From an uncultured bacterium (lineage in GTDB: Bacteria > Bacillota_I > Bacilli_A > RFN20 > CAG-826): DNA of 64,000 bases. Position 1 is the stretch's first letter; every line of letters starts with the position of its first letter. Where the stretch lies: NCBI GenBank assembly GCA_949291375.1, contig CASEVI010000001.1, positions 2,967 through 66,966 of the forward strand, in the 5' to 3' direction. The position numbers and the translations under genes are program-made. The notes beneath the pieces were generated by a model that was not told the DNA's origin, did not search any database, and saw only the letters and a program-made list of their open reading frames with translations. Shown piece by piece: positions 1-62,339 of the stretch.

Positions 1-2022
1 ATATTGAATTGAAGAAAAATTCGTTAAATCAACATTTTTAATAATATAAATGAATTCATTATCTAAAGCTGAATTTTTAATATCATCATTAATAACTTCG
101 CTAGTAGTCCCATTTGTTGTTAAAAATTTAGGATTTACTATATCTGTAATAGTATCGTCATTAATATGAATTACTTCACTTTTTCCTTTATAAACACCAT
201 GTGTTTGTTTAACCATTGAAGGAGAATTGTGATAATAAAAGTCAACTTGATTATTAATATTACCAGAAGAATCTAAACCAGTAACAAATTTAGCTTCAAG
301 AACTTTTTCGATACCGACAATAAAATACGATGAATTTTCATATTTATGATTAGCAGTACCTGTTGAAATTATTTCACAATTACATATTTGATAAAAAGCA
401 TTGCTTAAAATTTCGATATGTTTTCCACGTAATGAATTAAATGAATTTGAATTTTCAATTATGGTTTTAACATCGTTAAACCCACCAGAAAAATTAATAT
501 TACCAGAAGGGTAATTATTCAATAATGTTTTGTTAGTTAAGAAAATATATACATTGTATAAAGAATCTTCATCACCATATTTTTCAAAAAAATTATTGTT
601 ATTAAAATCGTATAATTTATGGGACCCACCTTCATAACGCCCATCACTAGTGTTATCAATAGCGGCCGCAGCACCTTCTATAATCGTAGAACCTTTACTT
701 TCTCCAAGAGTAACATTTTTAACCGACCCATATATAAATGGAACATCAATGCCATCTACATTAAGCATAATTTGTTCATCGTGATATAAAAAATTTTGTT
801 TTTTTCCGTTTATATTTAAGTCGATCGAGTCTTTGCCGCCGTTAACTGTTGTTTTGTCGTCAACCCAGCCATCATCACCACCATAATAATCGTAAGCTTT
901 TCCGCTACTAAAAATAGGAAATAATCTAATAACATTATTTTCGTCGGCATACTGATCTAAATTTCTCATTATATCGAATAAATCAATAACATCTTTACAA
1001 GTAAAAGAACCCGATTTAAGATCTTCATTATCTGCAACTATATGGACAGAAAAATTTTTACTATCATCAAAATAACCCCATGAAGCGAATGTATAATTAT
1101 AATAGGATTCGTTAGAATCAGGATAATCGTCACCCATTTCATTTTGAGGAGTTGGAATTAAATCATAAATACTTGTTGATAAAGTGTCTGTTACTGTTAA
1201 TTTTATAGGCAAATAGTTTGAACCGGCATCATCAACATTTTCCCAGTAACCAAGTCTTTTGCTTCTATCGTGTATTTTGCCATCTTCAGATTCATAACTA
1301 TAGCCAGGAACATTGTCATTATAGACTGAATCGTTATTCCACAAATCATCATCATTATCAATATAATCAAGTACTCCATCAGTCTCATTTTCATAAAACA
1401 AATCATTTATTACTGTTTGTTTATAAGAATAAGGATCTGTATTTAAACCACCAATATAATTCCGATAATAATATGATCCCCAATCATCCGATCCCCACCC
1501 ATGGTGCTCTACAGACGCAAAGTCAGATCGAATTAAAGTTAAATAAGCATTATCCCCAAAAGTATTATTATTTAATGTCTCTGAACTTTTTGCATTATAT
1601 TCGTTTTTCTCACTGGTTTTTTTTATAACATTTCCATCTTCATCAAAATTCCGCTCAACATAGCCGAAACAATCTTCAGGTAAAATAGTATCTAAAGTCA
1701 TTCTTTTATAATATATTAAATCATAAATATTTTGAGGGCGTTCTCCAGGATTTTGTACATTAGTAACTGGCTTTAAATATCTACTATATTGTTCAGTATA
1801 AAATGTAGAAGGAAAAAAATAGATTGTATATTCAGTTGAGGTATCACTACTATTAGCACTACTATCATAGTTTTCTTTAATATTATCGATTCCTCCAAAA
1901 TTAACACCTGTATCTTTTTTAACTGTTTCACTATTAAATACCCAATAAGAAAAACCAATAGTAGGTACTACTATTAATAATGCTAAAAATATTATAAAAA
2001 TAGATAATAATCTTTTTTTCAT
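1..2022 (-). CDS. Large secreted/surface protein (putative adhesin or fibre accessory subunit), >674 aa, runs off the window's left edge; not in ORF track
   Basis: ATG at 2022-2020; manual translation shows no stop down to position 1: MKKRLLSIFIIFLALLIVVPTIGFSYWVFNSETVKKDTG...; signal-peptide N-terminus; D/N/Y/G-rich body; YTFASWGY segment recalls Listeria-Bacteroides-type repeats. Confidence 0.85.
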   Translation of the reverse strand, partial: MKKRLLSIFIIFLALLIVVPTIGFSYWVFNSETVKKDTGVNFGGIDNIKENYDSSANSSDTSTEYTIYFFPSTFYTEQYSRYLKPVTNVQNPGERPQNIYDLIYYKRMTLDTILPEDCFGYVERNFDEDGNVIKKTSEKNEYNAKSSETLNNNTFGDNAYLTLIRSDFASVEHHGWGSDDWGSYYYRNYIGGLNTDPYSYKQTVINDLFYENETDGVLDYIDNDDDLWNNDSVYNDNVPGYSYESEDGKIHDRSKRLGYWENVDDAGSNYLPIKLTVTDTLSTSIYDLIPTPQNEMGDDYPDSNESYYNYTFASWGYFDDSKNFSVHIVADNEDLKSGSFTCKDVIDLFDIMRNLDQYADENNVIRLFPIFSSGKAYDYYGGDDGWVDDKTTVNGGKDSIDLNINGKKQNFLYHDEQIMLNVDGIDVPFIYGSVKNVTLGESKGSTIIEGAAAAIDNTSDGRYEGGSHKLYDFNNNNFFEKYGDEDSLYNVYIFLTNKTLLNNYPSGNINFSGGFNDVKTIIENSNSFNSLRGKHIEILSNAFYQICNCEIISTGTANHKYENSSYFIVGIEKVLEAKFVTGLDSSGNINNQVDFYYHNSPSMVKQTHGVYKGKSEVIHINDDTITDIVNPKFLTTNGTTSEVINDDIKNSALDNEFIYIIKNVDLTNFSSIQY

Positions 2023-2494
2023 TTCTTTAATTTCTTTTATATTTATAATCTTAAATATTTTAAATAAATTAATTATTTAAAATATGTATATTTTATTTTT
2101 AATAAAAATTATTATTTATTTTTTAAAAATTAAATATTTAAGATTATATATAAAATTACACTCCCTAAAATAATAAATATAATTTTTAAATAGATAAGTA
2201 ATAACAAATAATTAAATAATTATTAATCTTAAAATTATTTAATTAGTTCACTCTCTAATATTGACTAATTAAATAATTAATAGTTTTATGTTTTCAAATA
2301 ATAATCAAATAATGATTGATAGTCCTTAAAATAAGGGAAAGAAGAAATGAATTAATATATTTATTAAAATAAATATTAATTCGTTTTCTATCCCTTATTT
2401 TAATTATCTTATTTAATTATTATATTTTTATCTATCTTAAATATTAGGATATAAGATAGATTGATTTGATAGATTCATTGTTTAGATAGGTTGA

Positions 2495-3127
2495 TTAAGC
2501 ATTGACTAATTCTGCTGTAATTGTAACAGCGTTTTTATCTGCAATAGATTCAATTGCATTTTTCCAAGTTGTATATGCAGTACTTGATGTTGGTTTTCCA
2601 GTTGTTCCACTTCCAGCTGCTTGATAATCAATAAAATTATTTTCGGTTTTATCAGTTCCTAATGTTAATTCAGCAACATTAGAAGATAAAGAAACAGTTG
2701 TTGTAGCTTCATAATCACTTGTTCTTCCTGTTGCATCATTTGCAATTTTTAAATATGGTCTATAAGCCTCAGCAATTGTAATACTGAATTTAACACTATC
2801 AAAATTTGTTCCATCTGTTGCTGTACCATTTTTAGAAGCTGTTAATGTAGTAACGGCTGTATTAGTATCATTTGTAGTAGCAAAATATATACCTTTTGTT
2901 ACATCATCTTTATTGCTTGAGCCACCTTGATCTAAAACTAAAGTTAAATTGGAGTAATTTAAAGTAATAGAATAATTATTTGATGTCATATCTGTAATTG
3001 TAACACCTAAAGTATTTGTTGCTTTAGTATTAGATTCACTAAAACTCCAACTTGAAAATCCACTTCCTACTAAAACTCCGGCAGTTAAAAGTGGTAAAAC
3101 TGTCATTAATAATTTTCTTTTTAACAT
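2495..3127 (-). CDS. Secreted Thr/Ser/Ala/Asn-rich 210-aa protein, putative major fibre/pilin-like subunit with SipW-like signal peptide
   Basis: ORF track; MLKRKLLMTVLPLLTAGVLVGSGFSSWSF; strong SD (AAGGGGAG/AAGGA) just upstream; beta-rich composition; C-terminal VTITAELV strand. Function is inference. Confidence 0.8.
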   Translation of the reverse strand: MLKRKLLMTVLPLLTAGVLVGSGFSSWSFSESNTKATNTLGVTITDMTSNNYSITLNYSNLTLVLDQGGSSNKDDVTKGIYFATTNDTNTAVTTLTASKNGTATDGTNFDSVKFSITIAEAYRPYLKIANDATGRTSDYEATTTVSLSSNVAELTLGTDKTENNFIDYQAAGSGTTGKPTSSTAYTTWKNAIESIADKNAVTITAELVNA

Positions 3128-3133
3128 ATGTCC

Positions 3134-3693
3134 TTAACTCCCCTTAAGAATAATAAATTAGAAAATTTATATATAAAAAGACGACACCTATCCCAATGCC
3201 ACTTTAATTAAAGCAAAAATAAAAAAAAAAAAAATAGAACTATATTTTTTGACTATAAAGTCAATATAAAATATAGAGATAATTATCTATCTTTTTAATT
3301 GATAATATTGATTAAATTACTATTTATCTTATAAATTTATTTAAATTATGAAGATTTCTTGAATATCTTCATAATTAAAATTCTATTTATAAGTATAAAC
3401 AGTAATTATAATAAACAATAAAGACATAGTTAATAAGTAGGAAGTAGTAAATTTTATATTAAATACACCACAATATGTGCTTATTTAATACTTTTTATTT
3501 TTAAAATAATAATTAATAGTTAATAACAATAACATCTTTACTATTGCGCTTTTTTCTTATTATTAATTTAGATCTATCCCTTAATTATTTTTAATTTAGT
3601 TTAATTTAATATTTTTTTTACTTATTATTTTTTATTAATTATTAATTATTATTTTAGTTAATTATTTAATATAGTTTTCTTAAGGGGAGTTAA
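3134..3693. repeat. Perfect 17-bp inverted repeat pair (3134-3150 / 3677-3693) overlapping the RBS of the 210-aa gene
   Basis: TTAACTCCCCTTAAGAA at 3134-3150; exact reverse complement TTCTTAAGGGGAGTTAA at 3677-3693. Confidence 0.9.
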
Positions 3694-3875
3694 TAAAACT
3701 AACGTTAACCTTATAAATTAATTAAGAATATTAATGAATAAGTTTTTTTAAGTTAAAGAAAATAAAAATAACTTAAATTAATAAATAGATGAATAATAAT
3801 AGTTATTAAGTTAATTAATTACATTTAAATATTAAAAATATTAAATGTAATTAATTATAGAAGTAATAAAACGTA

Positions 3876-4010
3876 TTAATATTTCTTTACTTCGTTAAAA
3901 CTAACATTACTCTTTAAAAGTAAGAAATACCAAGCACAGAAGCTAACGCCTAAAGTTAATAAAGCGATAGCTAATATAAGAATAAATCTAGCTACTCTTC
4001 TTATTAGCAT
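3876..4010 (-). CDS. 44-aa micro-protein consisting mostly of a signal-peptide-like segment; not in ORF track
   Basis: AGAGGAAAAAGT-ATG; MLIRRVARFILILAIALLTLGVSFCAWYFLLLKSNVSFNEVKKY*; SFCAWYF matches the GFSSWSF/GFSYWVF motif of the two downstream genes. Confidence 0.7.
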   Translation of the reverse strand: MLIRRVARFILILAIALLTLGVSFCAWYFLLLKSNVSFNEVKKY

Positions 4011-4057
4011 ACTTTTTCCTCTGTTGCTTATTTATAATATTAACTATTTAAGAAGAT

Positions 4058-4446
4058 TTGTGAAGAAAGAAATTTCACATATCTTTACAAAAAAGAATAT
4101 AAAAATATAAATAAAATTTTGTGAAATTAAGTGAAAACATGATAAAAATAATGATAAAATTCTTATTTTTTCCGATTATTATCGAAAAAAATCTTCTTCA
4201 CAGAAATTCTAAATATTTTAATGAAAGTTTAAATTTTTGTCATTATTTTAACGAGTGTCGGATATTTTTAAACAATAAAAAAATAGTAATTTTTAATAAA
4301 AATTAACAAGTCGTTACAAATTTTTAATATATTTTTCAATAAATTTCACATGTTTTCACATTTTTTTAATTGACTTTATAGTTAATATTTTTTAGACAAC
4401 CCTCCTTTATATACAAGAATGCTAAAAAGAAGCGAAAATATTCACA
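4058..4446. promoter_or_regulatory. Cluster of TTTCACA-like boxes, several in 10-bp-period direct repeats (candidate OmpR-family operator sites)
   Basis: tttcaat/tttcaca/tttcaca at 4334/4344/4354; tgtgaaa/agtgaaa at 4120/4130; more copies at 4059, 4073, 4196, 4440; ttttgca/tttcaca at 6484/6494. Confidence 0.45.
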
Positions 4447-5211
4447 TTTTTTTAAAATTTTAAAGAATTTAAAGAAAGCAAATTAATTTCAATTATTATT
4501 TTGGCTTATAGAAGATTTTTGACATTGATAAGAAAAATCATCTTTGAAAACAAAGAAAAATAAAGTCATAAAAGCTAAACTTGAGATTTTAATGAGTTCT
4601 TCTTATTAATTTGTTTTCCTTTGTTTACACCGATATTTTGATACATTTGCATCGACATTTACAACGACATTAAAGATTAACAAGGTTAAAATTTTTCCTT
4701 ATAAGACACTAAAGTGCCAAACGTCCGTCACTTTAAAATTTCGACCCTTGCTAACTCGACATTTTTCGATTTTAATATATGTACGAATTTAAACCTTGTT
4801 GCTGCAGTTTTTGCACCAACCTCATTGCTATCACTTGTCGATACCAATTTATAACTTATTAATTTTTTAATCTAAACATCTATAACAATAACTACTACTC
4901 TTTCTAGTTAAAGAGAATTCAATAATAAAAAATTATATTCTTAAGGCAAAACTTTAATAAATATAATTTGTTCTTATTTAGGATAATTAAATTCTTCTTT
5001 CTTTATTTCCCTAGCACGGAGATAAGGATCATTTCTTTGACAACTATATTTTCTTTTTAATTTGACTTTTGACCTACTTCCTAAAAGTCTTATATTCTTT
5101 TATGAGGCTTTCTTAACTTTTAAAAATCAAAAATCAATAAAGTTTTTCTTTAGGAAAAGTAAAAACATTATATATTTTAGATATTCTAACTAATTTTAAA
5201 CTTGCTTAGAT

Positions 5212-5260
5212 AAAATAAAAAGCAACATTTCTTATAACACCAAGTTTTAGATATGTTGCT
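5212..5260 (-). terminator. Probable intrinsic terminator of the regulator gene
   Basis: AGCAACAT...ATGTTGCT stem (5221-5260) followed on the - strand by TTTTATTTT. Confidence 0.55.
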
Positions 5261-5264
5261 TAAT

Positions 5265-6308
5265 TTACTTATTATTTTTTACTAATTCGTTATAGATATC
5301 TCTAAATGTATCGCTTAAATTTTTATCCTGACCATTTAAATTAATAATTCTTCCAGGATTTTCAAGTTCTATAACTTCATCGTAATTTTCTTTATTTCCT
5401 AATGGATCAAAATAGTAGCCTTTTCCAAATATAATTTTAATATATTCTTTATTATTAACATTAATTTTTGCTCTAATTGTTGATAAATGTCTAGGAACAG
5501 ATGTTCTTTCACTCAAAGATGGTTCTTTCTATAATCTATCATAAATTTCATGAGCACTAAATACTCTATTTGGATTAGAAGCTAATAAGAAGAGAATCTT
5601 AAATTGAATTGGAGTAAATTTAGTTTTCTTATTATTAACTTTGACACTCTTTTTAACATTATTAATTTCAAGATCACTTGTTTTAATAATTTCTTTAACG
5701 ATTAATTTTAATCTTAATCTTATTTTAAGTTCATTGAGGAATGTTAAATATTCTTTAGTAAATATTGCTTCAACATTTTTATGTAAATTAGAATCGTCAT
5801 TAAAATCTTTATAATCAATATTTTCTAAATAAGAATAGTTAAAGTTATCAATGACAACTTTAATATAATTAGACATATAAATAAAATCAATAAATATATT
5901 ATCGTCTGAGAAAAGTTCAACAAATTTAGAATTGCCTTCTTTATTAAATAATTCATCATAAATTACAAGTTTATTAATTTCTTTAAACATGTTAACGATT
6001 TCTAAACAATCTTTATCGTTTAAAATATTTTTATAGAATGTTAAAGAAAGTAAAACTATATCGATTCTTTGATAGGTTGGATTATTTTTATCTGTTTCCA
6101 TCTCTTTTTTTAAAACTGTTAAAGCTTTATATCGAGTAGAAACTAAAAGTAAATTGAATTCGTTTTCTAAAAAGAGTGACAAATGAAAAAGAAAGGTTAA
6201 AGATTCATCTAATACTAAAACCTTTGGACGATATGATTTACTAATTGATAGTGGGAAATTGTTCCTTTTTTCTTTTTTTAATACTTCATTTTTCACATTC
6301 TTTTCCAT
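5265..6308 (-). pseudogene. OmpR/PhoB-family winged-helix regulator with degenerate receiver domain, interrupted by one in-frame TAG (5531-5529)
   Basis: The 259-aa and 83-aa ORFs are in the same frame: ...FTPIQFKILFLLASNPNRVFSAHEIYDRL*KEPSLSERTSVPRHLSTIRAKI...YIKIIFGKGYYF is a complete OmpR wHTH; receiver KVLVLDE...IDIVLLSL has Ser at the phospho-Asp position. Confidence 0.8.
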
Positions 6309-6656
6309 AAATTTTAATCTAACAACTTATAACGACGTGTTTTTAAAGAAAAGATTGATATTTGTAATTTTAATTTAAAAAGAGAATTGCCATATATAAA
6401 TTATTACTTTTTAAATCCTTAAAATATTCTCTTTTCTTACTTTTATAATTAAATTGACAAATAATTAAAGATATTAGGGTTATTTTTGCAAATTTTCACA
6501 CTTATTTATGAAAAAATCACCAAAAATTACTATTTTCATAGTTTTTTTGGCTTACTTTTAATAAATATTTATTACCTTTATTGATTTTATTATAAGATAG
6601 ATTTTTAAAAAATAAAGTAGAAATTTTTACAAATTTTCATCTTTTAAACTTAATTT

Positions 6657-24475: not shown

Positions 24476-26389
24476 ATGTCTAAAAAAGAAAAATATGATA
24501 TTTTTGCAATAATTTTTGGAATTATAATCACAATTCCAATGTTAATTTTATCCTTTACAATTGGTGATAATCTTTTAGGACCAAGCGATATTAAAACATT
24601 GATTATTTTACCTTTATCACTTCTTGCTTATTTATTATTAATTTATGATTTTTTAATTAAAACAGTTAAAAATTTTAAGAAAAAAAGATTTTTTGATGAA
24701 ATAACTTTAACATTAATAGCTTCAATCGTTGCTTTTATTGTTGGAGAATACGTTGAAGGTTTAGCAGTCGTTGTATTTTTCCAAATCGGCGAAAAATTCG
24801 AAGATTATGCCGTTAATAAATCTAGAAAATCTATTAAAGAAGTTTTAGATATTAGATCAGATAAAGCTACTTTATATATAAATGGCGAAGAAAAAGTCGT
24901 TGATCCATATGATGTAAATGTTGATGATTTAATTATTGTTAAAAATGGAGAAAGGATTCCTCTTGATGGTATAGTTTATAAAGGCGAATCTTTTTTAGAT
25001 ACTTCTTCTTTAACTGGTGAACCTGTCCCTAAAAGAGCTAAAGAAGGCGATGTTGTTTTAAGTGGAGTTATAAATAAAGGGTCTCCTTTAATTATCAAAG
25101 TTAATAAGCCATTTTATGATTCCACCGTTTCAAAAATCATGGATATGGTCGAAAATGCTACAAATACAAAAACAAAAAACGAAAGATTTATTACAAAATT
25201 TTCAAAATATTACACTCCAATTGTTTTAATTATAGCTTTACTCATTGCTGTTATTACCCCATTTTTTGGAGATTTTAGAGTCTTAAACACTTGGAGTAAT
25301 TCATTTTTTAATGCCGCTTCACTTTTAGTTGTGTCTTGCCCTTGTGCACTTGTTCTTTCTGTACCTATGGCTTATTTTGTTGGGATTGGAGAGGCTAGTA
25401 AAATTAAAATGCTTATTAAAGGCAGCGCATATTTAGAAGATTTATCTAAACTTGATACTGTAATTCTTGATAAGACCGGAACAATTACTAAGGGAAACTT
25501 TGTTTTAACAGATATTATTCCTGCTTCAAATGATATATCTAAAGAAGAAATATTATCTTTAGCAAAAATTGCTGAATATAACTCACTCCATCCTATTGCT
25601 TTATCAATAATAGGCGATGATAAGTCAAATATTGATATAAGCGAACGGAAAAATGATAAAACTATTGAAGGGGAAGGAATTGAAGGATTATATAAAAATA
25701 AACTTCTTCTTGCTGGAAATACTAAATTATTAAAAAGATATAACATTGAATTTACTTTAAATAAAGAAGTAGGAACAATTGTTTATATTGCTTACGACAA
25801 TAAATTCTTAGGGTCAATGGTTATTAAAGATGAAATTAAAGAAGATAGTAAGAATGCTTTAACTGAATTTAAGAAAATCGGTATTAAAAATACCTATATG
25901 TTGACTGGTGATAATTTAGAAACCGCTAATTATGTAGCAAGTATATGCCATATCGATAATGTTAAAGCTAATCTTTTACCTTTAGATAAGGTTGAAGAGG
26001 TTAAAAAAATTGAAAATGACAAAAATAATAAAAAAGTTGCTTTTTGTGGAGATGGAGTCAATGATGCTCCTTCAATGGGAATTGTTGATTTAGGAATTTC
26101 AATGGGTGGAATTGGTAGCGATGCTGCTATTGAAGCTAGTGATATTGTTATAATGGATGATAAATTATCAACTTTAGTAAAAGGAAAACATATTGCTAAA
26201 CGAACATTAAATGCAGTTTATATCAATATAGTTTTCGCTATTTTAATAAAATTAATCGCTGTAATAATTGCTACTCTTAACCTTATCCCTGCTTATATTA
26301 TGTGGATTGCAATTTTTGCAGACGTAGGAGTTACTTTTCTTTGTGTTTGCCACTCATTGACATTAATGATTCATAAAAAATACAAATAA
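24476..26389 (+). CDS. cadA: Cd/Zn/Pb-exporting P1B-2 ATPase
   Basis: LTGEP, SCPCALVLS, DKTGT, GDGVNDAP, K and FADVG motifs. Confidence 0.92.
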   Translation: MSKKEKYDIFAIIFGIIITIPMLILSFTIGDNLLGPSDIKTLIILPLSLLAYLLLIYDFLIKTVKNFKKKRFFDEITLTLIASIVAFIVGEYVEGLAVVVFFQIGEKFEDYAVNKSRKSIKEVLDIRSDKATLYINGEEKVVDPYDVNVDDLIIVKNGERIPLDGIVYKGESFLDTSSLTGEPVPKRAKEGDVVLSGVINKGSPLIIKVNKPFYDSTVSKIMDMVENATNTKTKNERFITKFSKYYTPIVLIIALLIAVITPFFGDFRVLNTWSNSFFNAASLLVVSCPCALVLSVPMAYFVGIGEASKIKMLIKGSAYLEDLSKLDTVILDKTGTITKGNFVLTDIIPASNDISKEEILSLAKIAEYNSLHPIALSIIGDDKSNIDISERKNDKTIEGEGIEGLYKNKLLLAGNTKLLKRYNIEFTLNKEVGTIVYIAYDNKFLGSMVIKDEIKEDSKNALTEFKKIGIKNTYMLTGDNLETANYVASICHIDNVKANLLPLDKVEEVKKIENDKNNKKVAFCGDGVNDAPSMGIVDLGISMGGIGSDAAIEASDIVIMDDKLSTLVKGKHIAKRTLNAVYINIVFAILIKLIAVIIATLNLIPAYIMWIAIFADVGVTFLCVCHSLTLMIHKKYK

Positions 26390-42897: not shown

Positions 42898-43854
42898 TTA
42901 AAACAACTTTTTTGAAAGTGTTTCTAATCCATGGAAGAATAAACAATCATTGATTTGCAAAACATCAAAAATTTTCTTATCAACATAATATTGAACAACG
43001 AGTTCATACATTGAGTTTTTGCCAAATCCATAACCTTGTTTAGCTAATAAATAAGCAATATCTTTAGTGCTTAATTCAAAAGCCACACCTAAAGATAAAA
43101 GCATATTTTTAGTAGGGATGAACGTTGGTTCTTCAAAAAGTCTATCTAAATAAGTTTTATCCCGATTAGCTTTTAATGTAAGAGTGTTTTTATCAATGTT
43201 TTTAGCTTTCATTAATTTCTTTATCTCATTTACAACATCGACATTAGTGTCCTTTAAAAGTTGTTTTGGAGATTTTGTTTCGAAATGGGCATTAACATAT
43301 TGAGAAAGATTTTCTTTGAAGTCATCATCAAAAATATCAAATGGTTGCTTAAATAAAACAACATAAATATCAGAATCAATATGGTTTGATAAATATTTTA
43401 TAATTTCGTCCTTTTCAATATCATAACATTCTCTTAAAGGATAATTAAAATCACTTGAAATAACTGGGAATGCAGCACTCTTAAAATTATTTTCGTCAAT
43501 AATATTAAAAACAGATTTATAAGCATTTCTTAAATTTTTTTCTTCGCCATGTTTACCATTTATATAATTAGGACCGACAGCATGAATAATTGCTTTGCAA
43601 TTTGTTATATTAAAGGAAGGTGTCATAACAGCTTTTCCTACATCACAGTGGCCTATCTTTCTACATGCATCTTGTAATAATAAATCTCCTGCACGATGAA
43701 AAATAGCTCGACTTACGCCTTCAACCATCTTTAAATTAACATTTGCATTTGCAATAATAGCATCGACATCCATGCTAACTAAATCACCACGAACTAAATA
43801 AAGCGCCATATTTTTCCCCTGCATAATTATAGTAAAATAACACTCTATTTTCAA
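42898..43854 (-). CDS. Macro domain (ADP-ribose binding/hydrolase) fused to an HTH-like C-terminal domain
   Basis: GDLVSMDVDAIIANAN, GVSRAIFHRAG, IIHAVGP, AFPVISS; likely start MALYLV. Confidence 0.85.
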   Translation of the reverse strand: MKIECYFTIIMQGKNMALYLVRGDLVSMDVDAIIANANVNLKMVEGVSRAIFHRAGDLLLQDACRKIGHCDVGKAVMTPSFNITNCKAIIHAVGPNYINGKHGEEKNLRNAYKSVFNIIDENNFKSAAFPVISSDFNYPLRECYDIEKDEIIKYLSNHIDSDIYVVLFKQPFDIFDDDFKENLSQYVNAHFETKSPKQLLKDTNVDVVNEIKKLMKAKNIDKNTLTLKANRDKTYLDRLFEEPTFIPTKNMLLSLGVAFELSTKDIAYLLAKQGYGFGKNSMYELVVQYYVDKKIFDVLQINDCLFFHGLETLSKKLF

Positions 43855-50936: not shown

Positions 50937-52283
50937 TTAATCTTCTTTACCGTTTTCTACGATTTCCCAATGGCCATTTTTATCTGAGCCGACACGCACC
51001 AAGATGCCTTTAGATTTTAAAGAATTAATAATTGTTTGGACTGTTCGGCGTGATAAGTTTACCTTAGAAGTCATTTCATTTATCGTTACTTTACTATTTT
51101 CGTTTATTAGATTTAGGATCTTTGCTTCATTTACAGTGCAATTTACAGTGCAATTTACAATGCAATCGTCCTTCGCATTAAATCCTTTTTTATCAAAAGT
51201 TATGGTAACCATTATCCCGACACCAAGGAATCTGAAAGCTTCTCTGCCATAGGCTTTGACAACCTTAGGAACGCCATGTCCAGAACGATCGACGATGTCG
51301 CATTGAACGAAGACGTCCATGAGTTCTTTATTAACCGGATCGCTTACTCCTTCAAAGAAATCTTCTTTTGATAAACCCTCCTTTAATCCTCCATAAGACA
51401 TGATTTCCATTCTATCTTCATACCAATAAATCGAAGGAGGATTTCCATGAATCCAATCATTATGTACTAAAGCATTAACCCGAGCTTCCTCGAAAGCCTC
51501 ATTATCGAACATCTTCTTCGTTCTTCTTGGAAGAGTACTATCATCTATGTAAGTGTCATTCAAAGCTTCACAATAATGTTTAACATCTTCATACGCTTGT
51601 AAAATTGACTGCTGACCAAAATTGTTTCTCTTAGAATAGGAAAGTTTGTCTTTACCGTTGAATACACAAACTTGAATTGAATAGAAATTTTTGTCCGCTA
51701 AAAGTTCAGCCAAGAGATTATATTTGCCTTCTTTTGTAAGAAGTCAAAAACTACGTTCAAAGGTCTTTTCGTTAATCTCAACGCCCTTACTTCTTAGCTT
51801 TATCTTAAGAATGTCGAAAGTATAGCCGTCCCCATGGCTTTGAATGTCAACCAAGCCTAATTTATCTTCTTGTAGGGCTACGATTTGGCACTTATCAATT
51901 TCTTCTTCACTCATAGGAGTTGAGGAAGTTCCGTCTCTATAAAAACAACCAGTCGCACTTCTTCCCTCTTTCTTAATGTAATAAAGTTTGGTCCCTTTAG
52001 TTACTTTAACAACAATGATTGTTTTATCATCTTCTAATAAGGAACCTATTTCACATAAGCCTTCTGTAGAGGGAAGAATCTGATCTCGAATAATGTCTCT
52101 GATTTCCCTCATTATTTTATCGACATTAGAAACACCTAAAACATCACCATTATCATCAACACCAATATAGATAGTTCCATTTCTAGTATTAAGAAAAGCG
52201 ACGACTTCTTTTGCAAAGTCTTTGTTCAATGTTCTTTTAAGTTCTATATTTTCAGATTCTTGAAATTTCATTATAAAAAACAC
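50937..52283 (-). pseudogene. AlbA_2/Schlafen-like + HATPase_c_4-like + wHTH protein interrupted by one in-frame TGA (51746-51744)
   Basis: The 179-aa and 258-aa ORFs are in frame: ESENIELK...AFLNTRNGTIYIGV...FERSF*LLTKEGKYNLLAELLADKN...NALVHNDW...RVGSDKNGHWEI. Confidence 0.8.
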
Positions 52284-53073: not shown

Positions 53074-53085
53074 GAATTACCATTA

Positions 53086-53454
53086 TGGTGGAGATGCGGA
53101 GATTCGAACTCCGGTCCAAGAAATATTTCCCACTACTTCTACAGTTTAGTTAAGATTTAAATTTCATGACTTATCAACCTTAACGAACTTAACAGTCACT
53201 AGATTATATTAATTTAATTTAAACTTATAATCATCATTTAAACGAGTTTCTTAACTATCACAGAATAAAATTCAAAAAGAAGAAACGAAGAATTTTATTC
53301 CGGCATTCTTTTAAAATTAAAGTTGATTAACTGCTACTAAGCAGCGAATGCTAATCTTTGATTTCTGTTGCCAGATATTTGTTTTTAGTCTTTAAGGCGA
53401 CAACCCCACTGCAAATAGTGATAAATCAATCCCTGTCGAAACCAAGACATCCCC
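53086..53454 (-). ncRNA. ssrA: tmRNA; tag peptide (A)GNRNQRLAFAA
   Basis: 5' GGGGATGTCTTGGTTTCGAC; 3' CGGAGTTCGAATCTCCGCATCTCCACCA; tag frame GGC AAC AGA AAT CAA AGA TTA GCA TTC GCT GCT TAG TAG (53372-53334). Confidence 0.97.
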
Positions 53455-53929: not shown

Positions 53930-53994
53930 ACAATTTTTATATATCTTCTTTTCCTTAAATAGTATATACTATTTAAGCGTTGAGGTAAAAATTA

Positions 53995-54984: not shown

Positions 54985-55007
54985 AATAAATATTAAAATA
55001 TTAAATT

Positions 55008-55040
55008 AAAGATAGTTACTAGCTGGAACTATCTTTTTTT
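55008..55040 (+). terminator. Intrinsic terminator
   Basis: AAAGATAGTT...AACTATCTTT followed by a T-tract. Confidence 0.7.
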
Positions 55041-55094
55041 AATAGTAAAAAAGTTGCCTATATAAGACAACCCTTTTATACAACTCTCTATTTA

Positions 55095-55406
55095 TTAAAA
55101 TAAGAAATTGGTAATTAAATTAATTGCTGTTGTAACGCTATCATCAGCAGTTACTCCGCTTGAATCGCTTCCTCCACCAACTCCTAATACAGAAGAAAGT
55201 AATGCTAAGAATAAGAATACAATACCGAATCCAAGAGTTAAATATGAAACAATAAGTTCACTTCCTCTTTCTTTTGTTTTAACGAAGACATTTAATCCTC
55301 CGCCAGTAATAGCACCGGAAGCACCTTCACTCTTACCACCTTGGAGTAAACTTAAAACAATGATAATTACACATATTACCCAGAATATCCAATCATACCA
55401 CTGCAT
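55095..55406 (-). CDS. secG: Preprotein translocase subunit SecG with C-terminal extension
   Basis: LLQGGKSEGASGAITGG...KTKERGSE with two TMs; AGGAGG RBS. Confidence 0.88.
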   Translation of the reverse strand: MQWYDWIFWVICVIIIVLSLLQGGKSEGASGAITGGGLNVFVKTKERGSELIVSYLTLGFGIVFLFLALLSSVLGVGGGSDSSGVTADDSVTTAINLITNFLF

Positions 55407-55475
55407 AAATTAATCCTCCTTTTAAAAATTTGCTTAATTATTTTATGATAAATATCACTTAAAGTCTATATAGAT

Positions 55476-57455
55476 TTACTTTAGGCTATCTTTTAAAGTA
55501 AATAATATTTCTCTTAATTCAATAGCTTTTTCAAAATCAAAAACCTTGGCAGCTTTTTTCATTTCACTTTCGACTTGTTTAATCTTTAATTCAATTTCTT
55601 TCTTAGTTAATTTAGTATCTTTTTCATTAATATCCAATTTATTATCTTCATGAGTAATTGCATGAATTGGTGAAACAATAGGCTTAATAATAGTTTGAGG
55701 AATAATACCGTTTTCTTCATTATATTTTTCTTGAATTTCTCTTCTTCTATTAGTTTCATCAATACATTTTTGCATTGATTCAGTCATAGTATCTGCATAC
55801 ATTATTGCTTCGCCATGTTCATTTCTAGCAGCTCTACCTACTACTTGAATTAAACTCCTTTCACTTCTTAAGAATCCTTCTTTATCAGCATCTAAAATAG
55901 CAATTAATGAGACTTCAGGAATATCCAAACCTTCTCTTAAAAGGTTTATTCCGACTAAAACATCATACTTTCCCTTTCTTAATTGATAAATAATTTCGCT
56001 TCTTTCTAATGTTTTGCATTCGCTATGTAAATAAACAGTTTTTATTCCTTTTTCTTTTAAAAATTTAGTTAAATCTTCTGCCATTCTTATAGTTAAAGTA
56101 ACAACCATGACTCTTTCACTTTTCTTAATTCTTTCTTCAATTTCATAAACCAAATCATCAATTTGTCCCAAAGATGGTCGAACAAAAATTTGGGGATCTA
56201 AAAGCCCTGTAGGTCTAATAATTTGTTCAACGAATTTATGATGAGTTTTTTCTAATTCATAATCTCCTGGGGTTGCACTTGTAAAAATAACTTGATTAAA
56301 TTCATTTTGGAACTCATCAAAATTTAATGGTCTATTATCTAAGGCACTAGGTAGACGAAATCCATATTCCACCAAGGTCATTTTCCTACTTCTATCACCA
56401 TTAAACATACCTCTAACTTGTGGAATTGTCGCATGAGATTCATCAATAATCATCAAATAATCTTTAGGAAAATAATCCATTAAGCAGAAAGGTTTTTCGC
56501 CCTTTTTTCTTCCATCGATATGACGTGAATAATTTTCAATTCCAGGGCACATTCCAAATTCTTTTAAAGATTCAACATCTTGTCTTGTTCTAAGTTCAAT
56601 TCTTTCAGCTTCTAATAGCTTACCTTCACTTTTAAAATAAGCAATTCTTTCGTCTAATTCCTTTAAAATTCTTTCACAAGCTATATTGATTCTTTCTTTT
56701 GTTGAGGCGTGATCATAGGCTGGATAAAAATTATAAACTTTATAAGATTCTAAAATTTCACCTGTTAAATAAGTAACTTTATAGATTCCTTCAACATTAT
56801 CGCCAAACATCTCAATACGAATATAACTGTCTTTATCATCAGCTCCCATAACTGAAATCGTATCACCACTAACTCTAAATCTACCTGGAGCAAGGTCGAT
56901 ATCGTTTCTTTTATATTGAGAATCAATTAATTTTTTATAAAAAGTTTTAACATCAATGTCTTCATCAACTCTTACTTCAAAAATTAACTTCTTATATTCT
57001 TCAGGATCTGTTAATCCATAAATTGAAGCAACAGAAGCAACAACAATTGTATCTCTTCTAGAAACAATTGAATTGACAGCACTAACTCTCATCATTTCGA
57101 TTTCTTCATTCATCATTGCAGATTTTTCAATATATGTGTCACTAGCAACAACATAAGCTTCAGGTTGATAAAAATCAAAGTTTGAAACAAAATATTCAAC
57201 TCTATTATTAGGAAATAATTCTTTCATTTCTTGATATAGTTGACCTGCTAAAGTTTTATTATGGACTAAAATTAAAGTAGGTTTTTGAGTTTTTAATATA
57301 ACATTAGCCATTGTAAAAGTTTTGCCGGTGCCAGTTGCACCTAATAAAACTTGAAACTTCTTTCCTTCTTCTACCCCTTCGACAAGTTCTTTTATTGCGG
57401 TTGGTTGATCTCCAGTAGGTTTAAATTTAGATACAAGTTCAAACTCTTTATTCAT
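55476..57455 (-). CDS. uvrB: Excinuclease ABC subunit B
   Basis: GATGTGKT, YQPEAY, DESH, GINLLREGLD, GRAARN. Confidence 0.97.
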   Translation of the reverse strand: MNKEFELVSKFKPTGDQPTAIKELVEGVEEGKKFQVLLGATGTGKTFTMANVILKTQKPTLILVHNKTLAGQLYQEMKELFPNNRVEYFVSNFDFYQPEAYVVASDTYIEKSAMMNEEIEMMRVSAVNSIVSRRDTIVVASVASIYGLTDPEEYKKLIFEVRVDEDIDVKTFYKKLIDSQYKRNDIDLAPGRFRVSGDTISVMGADDKDSYIRIEMFGDNVEGIYKVTYLTGEILESYKVYNFYPAYDHASTKERINIACERILKELDERIAYFKSEGKLLEAERIELRTRQDVESLKEFGMCPGIENYSRHIDGRKKGEKPFCLMDYFPKDYLMIIDESHATIPQVRGMFNGDRSRKMTLVEYGFRLPSALDNRPLNFDEFQNEFNQVIFTSATPGDYELEKTHHKFVEQIIRPTGLLDPQIFVRPSLGQIDDLVYEIEERIKKSERVMVVTLTIRMAEDLTKFLKEKGIKTVYLHSECKTLERSEIIYQLRKGKYDVLVGINLLREGLDIPEVSLIAILDADKEGFLRSERSLIQVVGRAARNEHGEAIMYADTMTESMQKCIDETNRRREIQEKYNEENGIIPQTIIKPIVSPIHAITHEDNKLDINEKDTKLTKKEIELKIKQVESEMKKAAKVFDFEKAIELREILFTLKDSLK

Positions 57456-58485
57456 CCTTTTTGTTCTTCTTTCCTATCTTTTTTAATTTTGAAATGCTGT
57501 TTTCTTTACTTGAATGTAAGGGAGAGAAACCTTCACCATTAACGGTTTGACATTCTCCAATAGTCATAAAAGCATCTTTATCAATCTCAGCAATCATATC
57601 TTTTACTTTTAATAATTCATCGCGAGAAAAAATAATTCTTACACAAATTTTTTCTTCGTTTGTATATCCACCAGTAACGTTATAAATAGTAACACTTCTA
57701 TTAAGTTCATTTATTACTCTTTCTTTAATTTCATCGCTTTTTGTAGTTATTATATCTGCAAAATATGCTCCAGATTGACGATCATAAATAAATTCAATCA
57801 TCATAGCACATAAAACAGCTGCAAAAATACCGATTAATCCAGCGATGAATCCTATTGAACTATATTTAATAGCATTAATTATTAAACCAACAATAACAAC
57901 ACTTCCATCTAATAAAAATGCTGAAATAGATGTTTTTAAGCCCGTATATTTATTTAAAATAAAGGTTAATATATCAAATCCACCAGTAGAGCCTCCGCCA
58001 ATAAAAGTGATACCACATCCTAAACCAGTGAACGCTCCACCAATAAGTCCACAAATTATCATTCTTCCAGCTTCTAAATTTTCTAAATTTATTAACTCTA
58101 AAACACTGCTATTAGAATTAATTTCTACTCCTTTATTTATCAAAAGGGAAACTAAATATTCTCCAATACCACTTCTTAAAACTAAAGAAACAAAAAGCGG
58201 ATAAAAAATTGAAGATATTAAAGTTTTTAAAGAAAATTTCCATCCTAAAAAGATGAGTCCAATAATATATAATCCCCAAGTAAAAATCATGACAATAACA
58301 TCAATGTCTAAAGGTATAAATTCAGCAATAATTAAAGAAAAACCGCTTAATCCACCACTAACTATTCCAAAAGGAAGAAGAAAAACCGAAGCACCAAAAG
58401 CAACAATAAAAGTTCCTAAAAGAACTAAAAAAACATTGTAAATTAATTTTATAATTTTCTTAGTTTTCTCATTAATTTTTATCAT
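57448..58485 (-). CDS. YitT family membrane protein
   Basis: GGLSG, GGSTGGFDI, RSVTIYNVTGGYT, IDKDAFM. Confidence 0.88.
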   Translation of the reverse strand: MIKINEKTKKIIKLIYNVFLVLLGTFIVAFGASVFLLPFGIVSGGLSGFSLIIAEFIPLDIDVIVMIFTWGLYIIGLIFLGWKFSLKTLISSIFYPLFVSLVLRSGIGEYLVSLLINKGVEINSNSSVLELINLENLEAGRMIICGLIGGAFTGLGCGITFIGGGSTGGFDILTFILNKYTGLKTSISAFLLDGSVVIVGLIINAIKYSSIGFIAGLIGIFAAVLCAMMIEFIYDRQSGAYFADIITTKSDEIKERVINELNRSVTIYNVTGGYTNEEKICVRIIFSRDELLKVKDMIAEIDKDAFMTIGECQTVNGEGFSPLHSSKENSISKLKKIGKKNKKDE

Positions 58486-59585
58486 TTTGTTTAGCCCTCC
58501 TTTCTAAATATGAATCGATAAAATCGTCTAAATCTCCATCCATAACATCATCAATTTGAGTTGTTTCATAATTTGTTCGGTTATCTTTTACTAAAGTGTA
58601 TGGGCAAAAAACATAGGAACGAATTTGCGAGCCCCATTCAATATTTTTTTGCTCCCCAATAATTCCATTTAATTTATCTTTTTTCTTTTTTTCTTCAAGT
58701 TCAAAAAGTTTAGATTTAAGCATATTCATCGCAATTTCTCTGTTTTTTAATTGAGTTCTTTCAATTTGAGAAGATACGACTATTCCTGTAGGAATATGAG
58801 TGATTCTTACTGCCGTTTCAACTTTATTAACGTTTTGACCGCCAGCACCACTACTTCTAAAAGTATCAACTTTTAAATCAGTAGGGTTAATATCAATTTT
58901 TAAATTATCATCGAATTCAGGCGTAATATTTACACTAGCAAAAGAAGTATGCCTTCTTTTATTTGAATCGAACGGAGAAATTCTAACTAAACGGTGAACA
59001 CCTTTTTCTCCGCTTAATAAGCCATATGCATTTTTTCCTTCAATTAGCATCGTAACAGATTTAACTCCAACTTCTTCTCCAGGTAAAAAATCAATAATTG
59101 AATATTTAAAATGATGCCTTTCACAATATCTTTCATACATCCTTAAAAGCATTTGAGCCCAATCGCAAGCTTCAGTCCCTCCGGCTCCAGGATGTATTTC
59201 TAAAATCGCAGGCAAAGAATCGTATTCTCCATTAAATAAAACTTTCTTCCTTAATCCATCAATGGATGAAAAAATGGCCGTAGTCTCACTATTTATGAGT
59301 TCGGCCATATCAAAATCATCAACACTTATAGAAAATGCTAATTGTTTTAAATCAGTAATTTGTTTTAATAATGAAAGATATTGTTCTTTATTTTCAATAA
59401 GTTCATTTCTTTCATCAATTAATTTTTTTGCTTCTCTTTGATTTGAATAAAAATTTTCTTTTAAAGATAATTCATCAATTTCTTTTATACGTTCATTAAT
59501 CTTTGCGTTGTCAAAGTGAGTCACCAAGAGACTTTAGTAACTCTTCCTTTTCAACAATGTTATTACGTAATAAAAGTAAATCCAT
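58472..59585 (-). CDS. prfB: Peptide chain release factor 2 with programmed +1 frameshift
   Basis: ATG at 59585; MDLLLLRNNIVEKEELLKSLGDSL, then CTT TGA C at 59516-59510 preceded by internal SD-like GGTGA; SPF and GGQ motifs. Confidence 0.95.
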
Positions 59586-59594
59586 AAATTATAA

Positions 59595-62339
59595 TTAATT
59601 TGTGTGAATATCTTCGTATTCATGTTCTTCAGCTGCTTTTTTATCTTTATCGATATCAGAAATATTTAAGGCAGCATGATCAATGTTTTCGTTTTCTTTA
59701 TTCTTATCTTTATTTTCTATATTTTCGGCTTTTGCTTCTTTTACTTCTTCCTTTGCCTCTTCAACTATTGTTTGAGATTGAGCAATTTCACTGTTTACTA
59801 AAGATGTAACATTAGAAACAATTGGCTCGTCTTTCTTTTCAACATTAACTGATAACCCTTCAGTTTTAGTTTGTTCTGCAACTTTTGCAGCTTCAACTTG
59901 AGCAGAATTATCAATTGTTGGAGTAAATTCTTCTTTAGGAGTTTCTTTCTTAACAATTCTCATATTCATAAGATTTAAAACTACTTCAAGAGAGATAACT
60001 TCAAGCATTTCTCTAAATAATGCCCAGCCTTCATTAACATAATCTTGTAATGGGTTTGTTTGAGCATAACTTCTTAATGTAACAGATTCTCTAAATCTTG
60101 ACATATTATCAATTTGTTGAGTCCAGTTTCTATCAATAACTCTAAGAGTAATTTGTCTTTCGAGTTTTTCAACAGTTTCAGGATCATCCCATGCTTTCTT
60201 TTTATTTAAATATGCATCAATTAAAAGATCAGTTAAATCTTGTGCACAATCCTCAACGTTAGCATCATCCCGTGCAGATGGTTTAATTGTTCCTTCTGGC
60301 AAGAAACGAGGTTGAACAATTTTTGCTAATAATGTTCCATCAATAGCACCATTTTTATCAGCATTTGTAGCACGTTTTGCCAATGCTTTTCCACAATCAT
60401 TAAATGTTTCATCTAGTAATTCAGTGATATCTTTTGCATAAAGAATTTGATCTCTTTTTGCATACATAATATGTCTTTGTTTTGATAAAACATCATCATA
60501 ATCAAGAAGTGTTTTACGAACATCAAAATTTTGGCCTTCAATACGTTTTTGAGCACTAGTTATAGCATTAGTCATCATTCTCATATCAATTGGTTCATCA
60601 CCAAATCCTTCGAATAATTTTCTTAAATTATCACTAGCAAATCTAACCATTAATTCATCATCTAAAGAAACAAAGAATCTAGATGTGCCTGGATCTCCTT
60701 GACGTCCGCTTCTACCTCTAAGTTGGTTATCAATTCTTCTTGATTCATGTCTTTCAAAACCGAAAACATATAATCCGCCTAAAGCTTTTGTTTCAGGAGT
60801 AAGTTTAATATCGGTACCTCTACCCGCCATATTAGTAGCAAGGGTAATTTGATTCTTTTGACCAGCTTTTGCAACAATTTCAGCTTCTCTAGCATGGTTT
60901 TTAGCATTAATCATTTCATATTTAAGACCTGATTTATCAAGTTCACGAGCAACTTCTTCACTTGCTTCAACTGATGGAGTACCAATTAAAATAGGTTGAC
61001 CAGTTGCATGAACTTTTTTAACTTCAGAAACTAAAGCTTTCATTTTTGCTGCTTTATTAGCAAAAACTAAATCATTTAAGTCTTTTCTTATAACAGGTCT
61101 ATTTGTTGGAATACAAACAACTTTCATGTTATAAATTTTATTAAATTCTTCTTCTTCAGTTTTAGCAGTACCAGTCATACCAGATAACTTTTTGAATAAA
61201 CGGAAGAAATTTTGATATGTAATTGTTGCTAAAGTTGTTGTTTCTTCTTTTATTTCAACATTTTCTTTAGCTTGGATAGCTTGTTGTAATCCATCACTAT
61301 ATTCTCTTCCTTTTAAAACACGGCCAGTAAATTGGTCGATGAGTTGAATTTCACGATTTTCATCAACAAGATATTCAACGTCTCTAGTCATAATATAATT
61401 AGCTTTTAAAGCTTGATGAATTCTATGGACTAATTCTTGATATTGAGGAGCGTAAAGATTTTTAATTCCAAACATTCTTTCTGCTTTATCAACACCTTTA
61501 TCAGTTAAATTTACTGATTTTGATTTAACATCGATTTCATAGTCTCCATCAGGAACATAGTCAGGGTGTTTTCTTTTATATTCATCATCAACAGGAGTTG
61601 ATGCTTTTAACATTTTTACAAATCTATCAGCAACTTGATATTGAGACGCACTAGCTTTAGCACCACCAGAAATAATTAATGGTGTACGAGATTCATCGAT
61701 TAAAACAGAGTCAGCTTCATCAACGATAACGTAATTTAGTCCTCTTAAAACTCGTTGTTCAACAGTTGGAGCCATATTATCACGAAGATAATCAAAACCT
61801 AACTCGGAGTTAATTGTATAAGTAACATCACATGCGTGAGCTGCTTTTTTCTCTTGGTTTGTTAAAGCATGTAAATTAACGCCGGTTGTTAAACCAAGCC
61901 AACGATAAATTTGACCCATTTCTTGAGCATCTCTTTGTGCTAAGTATTCGTTAACAGTAACAATATGAACACCTTTGCCTTCAAGAGCGTTTAAATATGT
62001 TGGCATTGTTTCAGTTAAAGTTTTACCTTCACCAGTTTTCATTTCAGCGATTTCACCATCATGAAGAACTAATCCGCCAATAATTTGAACTTCAAAGGGA
62101 TACATTCCTAAAACTCTTTTTGCAGCTTCTCTACAGACAGCAAAAGCCTCATATTTTATATCTTCTAAAGTTTGACCTTTTTTAAGTCTTTCTTTAAATT
62201 CAACGGTTTTATGTTTAAGTTGGTCATCAGTTAAAGCAGCCATTTCATCAGCATAACTTTCGACTTTCTTAGCTTGTTTTCTATATTTATTTAAAATTCT
62301 TTGATCAACTCTAAAGATTTTATCAACAATATTTCCCAT
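59595..62339 (-). CDS. secA: Protein translocase subunit SecA
   Basis: MKTGEGKT, DEAD, ATNMAGRGTDI, QLRGRSGRQGDPG; likely start MGNIV at 62339 after AAGGA. Confidence 0.97.
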   Translation of the reverse strand: MGNIVDKIFRVDQRILNKYRKQAKKVESYADEMAALTDDQLKHKTVEFKERLKKGQTLEDIKYEAFAVCREAAKRVLGMYPFEVQIIGGLVLHDGEIAEMKTGEGKTLTETMPTYLNALEGKGVHIVTVNEYLAQRDAQEMGQIYRWLGLTTGVNLHALTNQEKKAAHACDVTYTINSELGFDYLRDNMAPTVEQRVLRGLNYVIVDEADSVLIDESRTPLIISGGAKASASQYQVADRFVKMLKASTPVDDEYKRKHPDYVPDGDYEIDVKSKSVNLTDKGVDKAERMFGIKNLYAPQYQELVHRIHQALKANYIMTRDVEYLVDENREIQLIDQFTGRVLKGREYSDGLQQAIQAKENVEIKEETTTLATITYQNFFRLFKKLSGMTGTAKTEEEEFNKIYNMKVVCIPTNRPVIRKDLNDLVFANKAAKMKALVSEVKKVHATGQPILIGTPSVEASEEVARELDKSGLKYEMINAKNHAREAEIVAKAGQKNQITLATNMAGRGTDIKLTPETKALGGLYVFGFERHESRRIDNQLRGRSGRQGDPGTSRFFVSLDDELMVRFASDNLRKLFEGFGDEPIDMRMMTNAITSAQKRIEGQNFDVRKTLLDYDDVLSKQRHIMYAKRDQILYAKDITELLDETFNDCGKALAKRATNADKNGAIDGTLLAKIVQPRFLPEGTIKPSARDDANVEDCAQDLTDLLIDAYLNKKKAWDDPETVEKLERQITLRVIDRNWTQQIDNMSRFRESVTLRSYAQTNPLQDYVNEGWALFREMLEVISLEVVLNLMNMRIVKKETPKEEFTPTIDNSAQVEAAKVAEQTKTEGLSVNVEKKDEPIVSNVTSLVNSEIAQSQTIVEEAKEEVKEAKAENIENKDKNKENENIDHAALNISDIDKDKKAAEEHEYEDIHTN

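Follow-up and report, generated by a model that had tools for sequence, protein, structure and literature searches.

The DNA considered here raises the question of which amino acid is specified by the codon CGG. It is a stretch of 64,000 nucleotides, referred to below as the window, from an uncultured bacterium of the lineage Bacillota_I; Bacilli_A; RFN20; CAG-826 (GenBank assembly GCA_949291375.1, contig CASEVI010000001.1, positions 2,967 to 66,966). The studied genome is designated G000 (1.288 Mb in 12 contigs, 96.7% complete), in which the window is G000:C1:2967-66966. A change in CGG's meaning from arginine to tryptophan has been described for a clade of uncultivated Bacilli within the GTDB order RFN20 (Shulgina and Eddy, 2021, eLife, PMC8629427), and a preliminary description of the window proposed that its few in-frame CGG codons are likewise read as tryptophan. 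As described below, CGG is very probably a tryptophan codon in this genome, a reading supported by genome-wide alignment columns, by their log-likelihood, by the TGG codons of congeners and by the features of a tRNA with the anticodon CCG.

CGG codons in the window and in the genome

Open reading frames (ORFs) of at least 80 amino acids, selected greedily without overlap, number 1106 in the genome, of which they cover 89%, and the same call gives the window 52 ORFs with 18,663 codons. There, CGG occurs in frame exactly six times, spread over five ORFs, and the coordinates and peptide contexts are those of the preliminary description, whose statement that uvrA, uvrB, eno, prfB and adh lack CGG agrees with this confinement to five ORFs. 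Six codons are a small sample, as that description acknowledged, and the main weight is carried by the 94 CGG codons found genome-wide in 86 of the 1106 ORFs. CGG thus amounts to 94 of 382,105 codons, or 2.5 per 10,000 (AGA, 8264; CGT, 1615; TGG, 1967). The guanine-plus-cytosine (GC) content is 0.26 for the genome and 0.23-0.27 across its contigs, and these values of CGG frequency and GC content match the published profile of reassigned clades; for the RFN20 clade this profile is a GC content of 0.26-0.38, fewer than six CGG per 10,000 codons, absence of tRNA-UCG and presence of a Trp-like tRNA-CCG (PMC8629427). If counted as a tryptophan codon, CGG makes up 4.56% of CGG plus TGG in G000, which is close to the shares of CTG in CTG plus TTG (5.58%) and of CTA in CTA plus TTA (5.10%).

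Residues aligned with CGG in standard-code relatives

In a test resembling that of Codetta, the 1106 ORFs, translated with table 11 (CGG as arginine), were aligned by tblastn to the whole genomes of two relatives, each a single contig. G162 belongs to the same family but another genus (1,061,998 bp, GC 0.41) and has a 77-nt Arg-type tRNA-CCG with A20 as well as a tRNA-Arg(UCG); G043 belongs to another family (1,011,443 bp, GC 0.38) and has a 77-nt tRNA-Arg(CCG) of the ordinary Arg type. Because the queries carry arginine at CGG, the alignments are biased against tryptophan. The residues found opposite CGG were as follows.

Against G162, 41 columns: Trp 20, Arg 1; Tyr 4, Phe 3, Thr 3, Met 2, Ala 2, and Leu, Ile, Val, Lys, Gln and stop 1 each
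Against G043, 25 columns: Trp 12, Arg 2; Leu 3, Phe 3, Tyr 2, and Ile, Val and Ser 1 each
Columns in which both references agree, 13 columns: Trp 10, Arg 0; Phe 2, Tyr 1

When both references are pooled, the 66 residues aligned with CGG include 32 tryptophans and 3 arginines. A predominance of conserved arginine columns, which the preliminary description had named as the outcome that would speak against its proposal, is therefore not what was found. The other five arginine codons face tryptophan in only 15 of 6908 (G162) and 17 of 6052 (G043) cases, about 0.25%, and for each of the remaining 60 sense codons the commonest partner is its standard residue. In the columns in which both references agree, the standard partner is found for AGA in 87%, CGT in 90%, CGA in 85% and AGG in 86% (all Arg), and for TGG in 89% (Trp). 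In a BLOSUM62-based log-likelihood calculated from 65 residues, tryptophan (-132.3) leads tyrosine (-229.9) by 98 units and arginine (-298.9) by 166, with phenylalanine at -234.8. Counted by site, 46 of the 94 CGG codons can be aligned to at least one reference; 22 of these face tryptophan in at least one, and three face arginine in one.

Several CGG codons occupy the tryptophan of well-known motifs. Alignment to solved structures places the CGG of AT[CGG]CGPC at the tryptophan of the thioredoxin motif WCGPC, and that of GAQ[CGG]GDEGKG at the tryptophan of QWGDEGKGK in adenylosuccinate synthetase (PurA). In RQRY[CGG]GEP, tryptophan stands opposite CGG in both references, and in RHGETE[CGG]N, from a protein of the histidine-phosphatase family that scores below cut-offs, it does so in G162, no alignment to G043 being obtained. 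We take these motif positions to be classic invariant tryptophan positions.

Two other codes were considered and rejected. Reassignment of CGG to glutamine, of the Peptacetobacter type, does not fit the counts, in which glutamine appears in 1 of 41 columns against G162 and 0 of 25 against G043 and is outside the four best log-likelihoods. Reassignment of AGG to methionine, as in a sister lineage, is excluded by the 86% arginine noted above for AGG in conserved columns. The single stop listed above is opposite the CGG at G000:C3:151493, in a 207-aa ORF aligned at 52% identity to the six-frame translation of G162, and probably reflects a broken or shifted gene in that reference.

Exchange of CGG and TGG between congeners

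Proteins of the congener G006 share about 71% identity with those of G000, in a comparison that covered 295 kb of G006 and 56,538 aligned columns. CGG of G000 is opposite TGG of G006 at 9 of 11 sites, the remaining two being GAA and AAT, and CGG of G006 is opposite TGG of G000 at 13 of 16 sites, the others being TTT (two) and GAA (one). Thus 22 of the 27 alignable CGG sites pair with TGG, none is CGG in both genomes, and an arginine codon is opposite CGG at none of the 27. In SecA of relatives, CGG occurs in L237 and L239 at a column with tryptophan in 46 others and in L241 at a column with glutamate in 39 and tryptophan in 14. The SecA gene of L262, a distant standard-code genome, has CGG where all others have arginine, and at further columns of polar residues.

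The tRNA with anticodon CCG and its probable synthetase

ARAGORN detects 41 tRNAs and one transfer-messenger RNA (tmRNA) in G000. The arginine-box tRNAs have the anticodons ACG, TCT and CCT, and in addition a tRNA with the anticodon CCG, located outside the window, is present.

G000:C7:49261-49335: tRNA(CCG), 75 nt, detected by ARAGORN

No tRNA-UCG was found in the 96.7% complete assembly, either by ARAGORN or by a pattern scan allowing one mismatch, and no tRNA-UCA was found by ARAGORN. In the published analysis, a tRNA is regarded as Trp-type when it has G73 and lacks A20, and a pair formed by U72 with A or G at position 1 is supportive (PMC8629427). In the tRNA(CCG) of G000, the 1:72 pair is A1:U72, the discriminator is G73 and the D-loop is AATTGGTA, with U at position 20, and all three ordinary tRNA-Arg genes of G000 carry A20. 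The arginine identity element A20, given in the preliminary description as a sign that its proposal would be wrong, is thus replaced by U20 in a tRNA that has the tryptophan features. The anticodon stem consists of 5 bp with a terminal U31-G39 wobble pair, and differs in this respect from the 4-bp stems that PMC13092985 discusses for certain CCG tRNAs of Anaerococcus and of the present genus.

When compared with all tRNAs of the two reference genomes, tRNA(CCG) is 70.8% and 68.5% identical to the tRNA-Trp and at most 63.5% identical to any tRNA-Arg, the tRNA-Arg(CCG) being only 59.7% and 52.7% identical; at identities of 65-73%, tRNAs give a tree little to rest on. Apart from A36G and A39G, the anticodon arm of tRNA(CCG) is the same as that of the G043 tRNA-Trp. 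These comparisons favour an origin from tRNA-Trp over evolution in place from an old tRNA-Arg(CCG). A BLAST search of 201 genomes of the order found the same tRNA, identical in sequence, in the congeners G008 and G204, a form that is 83-84% identical and still has CCG in G006 and G186, and a Trp-like CCG tRNA in G160, which belongs to another genus. The other BLAST loci inspected carry tRNA-Trp(CCA) genes at 22 of 24; the remaining two, L053 and L055, hold tRNA-Arg(TCT), tRNA-Arg(ACG) and tRNA-Ala. A copy of the multi-copy HATPase_c_4 family described in the last section lies about 1 kb from tRNA(CCG).

The gene for tryptophanyl-tRNA synthetase (TrpRS), trpS, is single in G000, located at G000:C1:346586-347575, with no paralogue. 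In an alignment of TrpRS, only columns 169, 228 and 323 distinguish six carriers of the Trp-type tRNA from six genomes that lack it. At these three clade-specific columns, TrpRS of the congener G012 groups with the outgroups.

Distribution of the Trp-type tRNA in the genus and family

In a sample of 60 genomes of the genus, G000 included, an exact pattern for a tRNA with a CCG anticodon is matched in 29, and ARAGORN confirms 28. All 28 confirmed tRNAs are 74-75 nt long and have G73 and U20; the 1:72 pair in their 20 distinct sequences is A:U in 16, G:U in 2 and G:C in 2; and the nearest tRNA is tRNA-Trp(CCA) for 26 of the 28. With one mismatch allowed, a like sequence is found, among the matches listed, in at least seven more genomes (G013, G139, G218, G224, G228, G232 and G235). 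No fewer than 28 of the 60, and probably 35, carry the Trp-type tRNA.

At least two congeners, among the matches listed, have instead a CTTCGAA anticodon loop, accompanied by a variable loop and T-arm of the Arg type (G012:C38:33487-33516 and G241:C39:3989-4018), which suggests a tRNA-Arg(UCG), and neither has a match to the CCG tRNA. G012 and G241 may be congeners that use the standard code, or reversions.

Among 251 genomes of the family, a few matches of odd length being left aside, Trp-type matches are confined to this genus and to G160, a member of another genus. The tRNA(CCG) of G160 (L038, G160:C2:1514-1587) is Trp-like, with A1:U72, G73 and no A20, and its D-loop has GA in place of GG. 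Other matches in the family are mostly 30 nt long with an RGGTC variable loop, as in the A20-bearing tRNA of G162, from which their type is deduced. A 29-nt match in G268, considered as a second outlying Trp-type tRNA, was rejected as Arg-type, as it has A20 and A73.

Probable mechanism and alternative explanations

The tRNA(CCG) of G000 probably arose from a copy of tRNA-Trp(CCA) by a change of A36 to G, with retention of the tryptophan identity set (G73 and A1:U72). The single TrpRS would charge this tRNA despite G36, and arginyl-tRNA synthetase (ArgRS) would reject it because it lacks A20, the principal ArgRS determinant, so that the tRNA, pairing with CGG by Watson-Crick pairing, would insert tryptophan. 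The neighbouring codons CGU, CGC and CGA would be read as arginine by tRNA-Arg(ACG), presumably after deamination to ICG by a TadA-like enzyme, for which a candidate gene is present (best match TadA, 128.9 bits, below the cut-off of 150). As no tRNA-UCG is found, nothing but tRNA(CCG) would read CGG, and with ICG covering the other three codons CGG would become a private codon, free to change its meaning without affecting its neighbours; such a private-codon scenario for CGG is set out in PMC8629427. If CGG and TGG are synonymous, T-to-C and C-to-T mutations can turn one into the other, and AT-biased mutation would hold CGG at about 4.6% of tryptophan codons.

Several points weigh against this reading. 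The change of A36 to G alters a nucleotide that contributes to TrpRS identity, and the tRNA retains C35 and G36, which aid recognition by ArgRS, so that some mischarging with arginine is possible. The margin by which tRNA(CCG) resembles tRNA-Trp more than other tRNAs is modest, about 5-10 percentage points. Adaptation of TrpRS is not evident, three clade-specific columns among related sequences showing nothing in this respect, and it is unlikely but possible that a tRNA-UCG was missed by the assembly at its level of completeness. Among the CGG sites, 48 of 94 align to neither reference, and the three that face arginine in one reference (C1:309349, C2:105074 and C2:174017, in alignments 37-49% identical) could be due to chance, be relics, or hint at ambiguous decoding. 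One of the three stands 7 codons from a CGG that faces tryptophan in both references. Finally, insertion of tryptophan at CGG is deduced here by computation alone, as in the published cases (PMC8629427).

That TrpRS and ArgRS share the charging of tRNA(CCG), giving a mixture of tryptophan and arginine at CGG, is improbable. In its favour, arginine is opposite CGG in 3 of 66 residues as against 14 of 1776 for TGG, C35 and G36, both used by ArgRS, are kept in the anticodon, and CGG is held rare among tryptophan codons. Computational methods of this kind do not exclude ambiguity, as Shulgina and Eddy point out (PMC8629427). Yet A20 is missing from the tRNA of G000 and from all 28 confirmed CCG tRNAs of the genus, the three arginine-facing sites are in poorly conserved stretches, and CGG is tolerated at catalytic or invariant tryptophan positions such as those of thioredoxin WCGPC and the PurA P-loop. 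The rarity of CGG, moreover, equals that of CTG and CTA (5.6% and 5.1%), so that AT-biased mutation alone can explain it and additional selection against CGG need not be invoked.

The standard code, under which the tryptophan-facing sites would be chance or Trp-to-Arg substitutions and tRNA(CCG) an odd tRNA-Arg, has in its favour only the open frames obtained with table 11 and the small sample of six CGG codons in the window. It has next to no probability in view of the tryptophan opposite nearly half of the aligned CGG residues, as against about 0.25% for the other arginine codons, the gap of 166 log-likelihood units, the lack of any arginine codon opposite CGG between the two congeners, and a tRNA that resembles tRNA-Trp and has no A20; the column counts, the log-likelihood and the congener pairing effectively refute it. 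No more credible is the explanation that CGG is not translated as such, being edited to UGG in the RNA by C-to-U conversion or representing assembly or sequencing errors for TGG. Every informative CGG is indeed one C/T change away from the TGG of relatives. A dedicated tRNA(CCG), conserved in no fewer than 28 genomes out of 60 in the genus and probably in 35, would nevertheless be pointless under editing or error, and an independently assembled congener has the same pattern at different sites. Translation of CGG as tryptophan by tRNA(CCG) thus remains by far the most probable of the explanations considered.

Turnover of CGG

Reassigned CGG in these clades has been suggested to represent an early stage, in which the codon has yet to rebound (PMC8629427). 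The lack of any CGG site common to G000 and G006, together with a CGG share like those of CTG and CTA, suggests fast neutral turnover instead of an early, unrebounded stage. Even in relatives whose proteins are 93-96% identical, the four informative sites of the window are TGG. Tentatively, and with a probability that we place slightly below even, CGG may therefore be a fully synonymous tryptophan codon at AT-biased mutational equilibrium with fast turnover, no longer at an early stage, and the set of reassigned genomes may be wider and patchier than one tidy clade.

Relationship to known reassignments

The link to the clade of the Codetta screen that was drawn in the preliminary description is very probably right, as the genus holds a record of Candidatus Onthovivens sp. 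Records of this name are among the relatives of the SecA of G000, and one of them, the SecA-relative locus L247, is equal in contig, coordinates and sequence to G220, a member of the genus sample. The lineage is named Onthovivens in two papers of 2026 (PMC13092985; bioRxiv 10.64898/2026.05.03.722492), which, in the parts available to us, treat it as the Bacilli with CGG read as tryptophan. G000 resembles the published lineage, as far as the available text describes it, in the codon and its meaning, in GC content (0.26) and CGG frequency (2.5 per 10,000), in the missing tRNA-UCG and the retained tRNA-ACG, and in a tRNA-CCG with G73 and without A20, and no essential difference from G000 emerges from these descriptions. 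As every testable defining feature is found in it, G000 most probably belongs to a reassignment that is already described, and the code itself is not new. A search of the later literature for experimental confirmation in the lineage yielded only these two papers, and in the parts of them available to us proteomic proof is unreported.

CGG is also reassigned to tryptophan in Anaerococcus, which shares with G000 a Trp-like tRNA-CCG, rarity of CGG and membership of the low-GC Bacillota but is an unrelated genus of Clostridia type and represents an independent event; according to the account of it in PMC8629427, CGG is extremely rare there and supporting examples in conserved columns are lacking, whereas G000 has many. 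In Absconditabacteria, both CGA and CGG are assigned to tryptophan (PMC8629427), so that arginine-box codons have likewise moved to tryptophan in a low-GC lineage. G000 differs in that CGA is kept as arginine, its partner in 85% of conserved columns, and TGA serves as a stop codon, there being no tRNA-UCA and, by construction of the ORFs, no in-frame TGA.

In Mycoplasmatales and others, UGA was reassigned to tryptophan by means of a tRNA-Trp copy with a changed anticodon. The course proposed for G000 is similar in that a copy of tRNA-Trp with a single anticodon change would have captured a codon rarefied by AT bias, with one TrpRS charging both tRNAs. The Mycoplasmatales change is C to U at position 34 and concerns a stop codon, whereas that of G000 would be A to G at position 36 and concerns a sense codon. 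In Mycoplasma capricolum, low GC content has made CGG nearly absent and the codon is unassigned, presumably an intermediate stage (Oba et al., 1991, as cited in PMC8629427). In contrast, G000 has a decoding tRNA(CCG) and uses 94 CGG codons in 86 ORFs, conserved sites included, which rules out the unassigned type for this genome.

If CGG is tryptophan, the usual bacterial table wrongly gives arginine at 94 positions in 86 proteins of G000, among them the active-site tryptophan of thioredoxin and the P-loop tryptophan of adenylosuccinate synthetase, and such errors spoil entries in databases, predicted structures and any attempt to express the genes heterologously. Because bacterial sense-codon reassignments are very few, each well-documented genome helps to test the factors in their origin, such as low GC content, loss of tRNA-UCG and duplication of a tRNA-Trp with a one-base anticodon change. 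For G000, in which a rare code appears to have been called correctly from raw sequence alone, the gain is a correct annotation together with added detail on the ancestry of the tRNA, the turnover of the codon and its patchy distribution in the genus.

The six CGG sites of the window and neighbouring features

The in-frame CGG codons of the window and the genes that carry them are as follows.

1462..1464, minus strand: CGG in SYYY[CGG]NY, 907-aa ORF running past the start of the window
1651..1653, minus strand: CGG in GYVE[CGG]NF, same 907-aa ORF
25646..25648, plus strand: CGG in DISE[CGG]KN, heavy-metal P-type ATPase of the CadA type
43162..43164, minus strand: CGG in KAN[CGG]DK, macro-domain protein (clear match, below equivalog cut-offs)
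51480..51482, minus strand: CGG in EAFEEA[CGG]VNALVHN, 258-aa HATPase_c_4 and winged-helix protein
60270..60272, minus strand: CGG in PSA[CGG]DD, SecA (NF009538, 1010.9 bits)

In line with the preliminary description, none of the six is at a conserved arginine. Alignment to homologues, the check that the preliminary description proposed, shows TGG at four of them in the closest relatives, arginine at none, and no informative residue at two. Its gene labels stand for SecA and CadA, the latter above the cut-offs of both TIGR01525 and TIGR01512, and also for the macro domain, within the limit noted in the list; the 907-aa ORF, which it called an adhesin, matches no Pfam or NCBIfam family. This ORF encodes a fast-evolving surface protein, and its relatives are only 31-33% identical. 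They have Leu or His at 1462, a site that is uninformative by itself, and Val, Val and Tyr at 1651, which are hydrophobic or aromatic residues in an unconserved and therefore uninformative column.

The codon at 25646 is TGG in G204 (94% identical), G008 (93%) and G238 (78%), with Ile or Pro in remoter congeners and Val and Leu in the standard-code references. That at 43164 is TGG in G008 (95% identical) and G204 (86%), with Phe, Ile or Leu in remoter congeners. At 51482, singled out earlier as the best case because its column is hydrophobic and often tryptophan, 7 of 23 homologues, the two closest included, have tryptophan (TGG), and the others have Val (9), Ile (4), Leu (2) or Phe (1), with no arginine. 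At the SecA site (60272, around residue 710 of the protein), TGG is found in 11 rows of an alignment of 58, the others having Tyr (38), Phe (7), Ile (1) and Leu (1) and none arginine; when three duplicate loci are removed, the TGG rows represent eight distinct genomes and cover every relative that is at least 77% identical.

The gene containing site 51482 (50937-51713, minus strand) belongs to a multi-copy family with members of about 450 aa and six matches in G000, further copies being located at G000:C7:50359-50802, G000:C5:2-415 and G000:C8:26173-26585. The open frames of full-length relatives extend over about 435-530 aa; at 258 aa, the copy in the window is short. As copies are found at contig ends (the end of C7 and the start of C5), the assembly was probably broken by them. 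The tmRNA gene of G000 also lies in the window (53086-53454, minus strand) and is ordinary-looking, with the tag peptide GNRNQRLAFAA predicted by ARAGORN.

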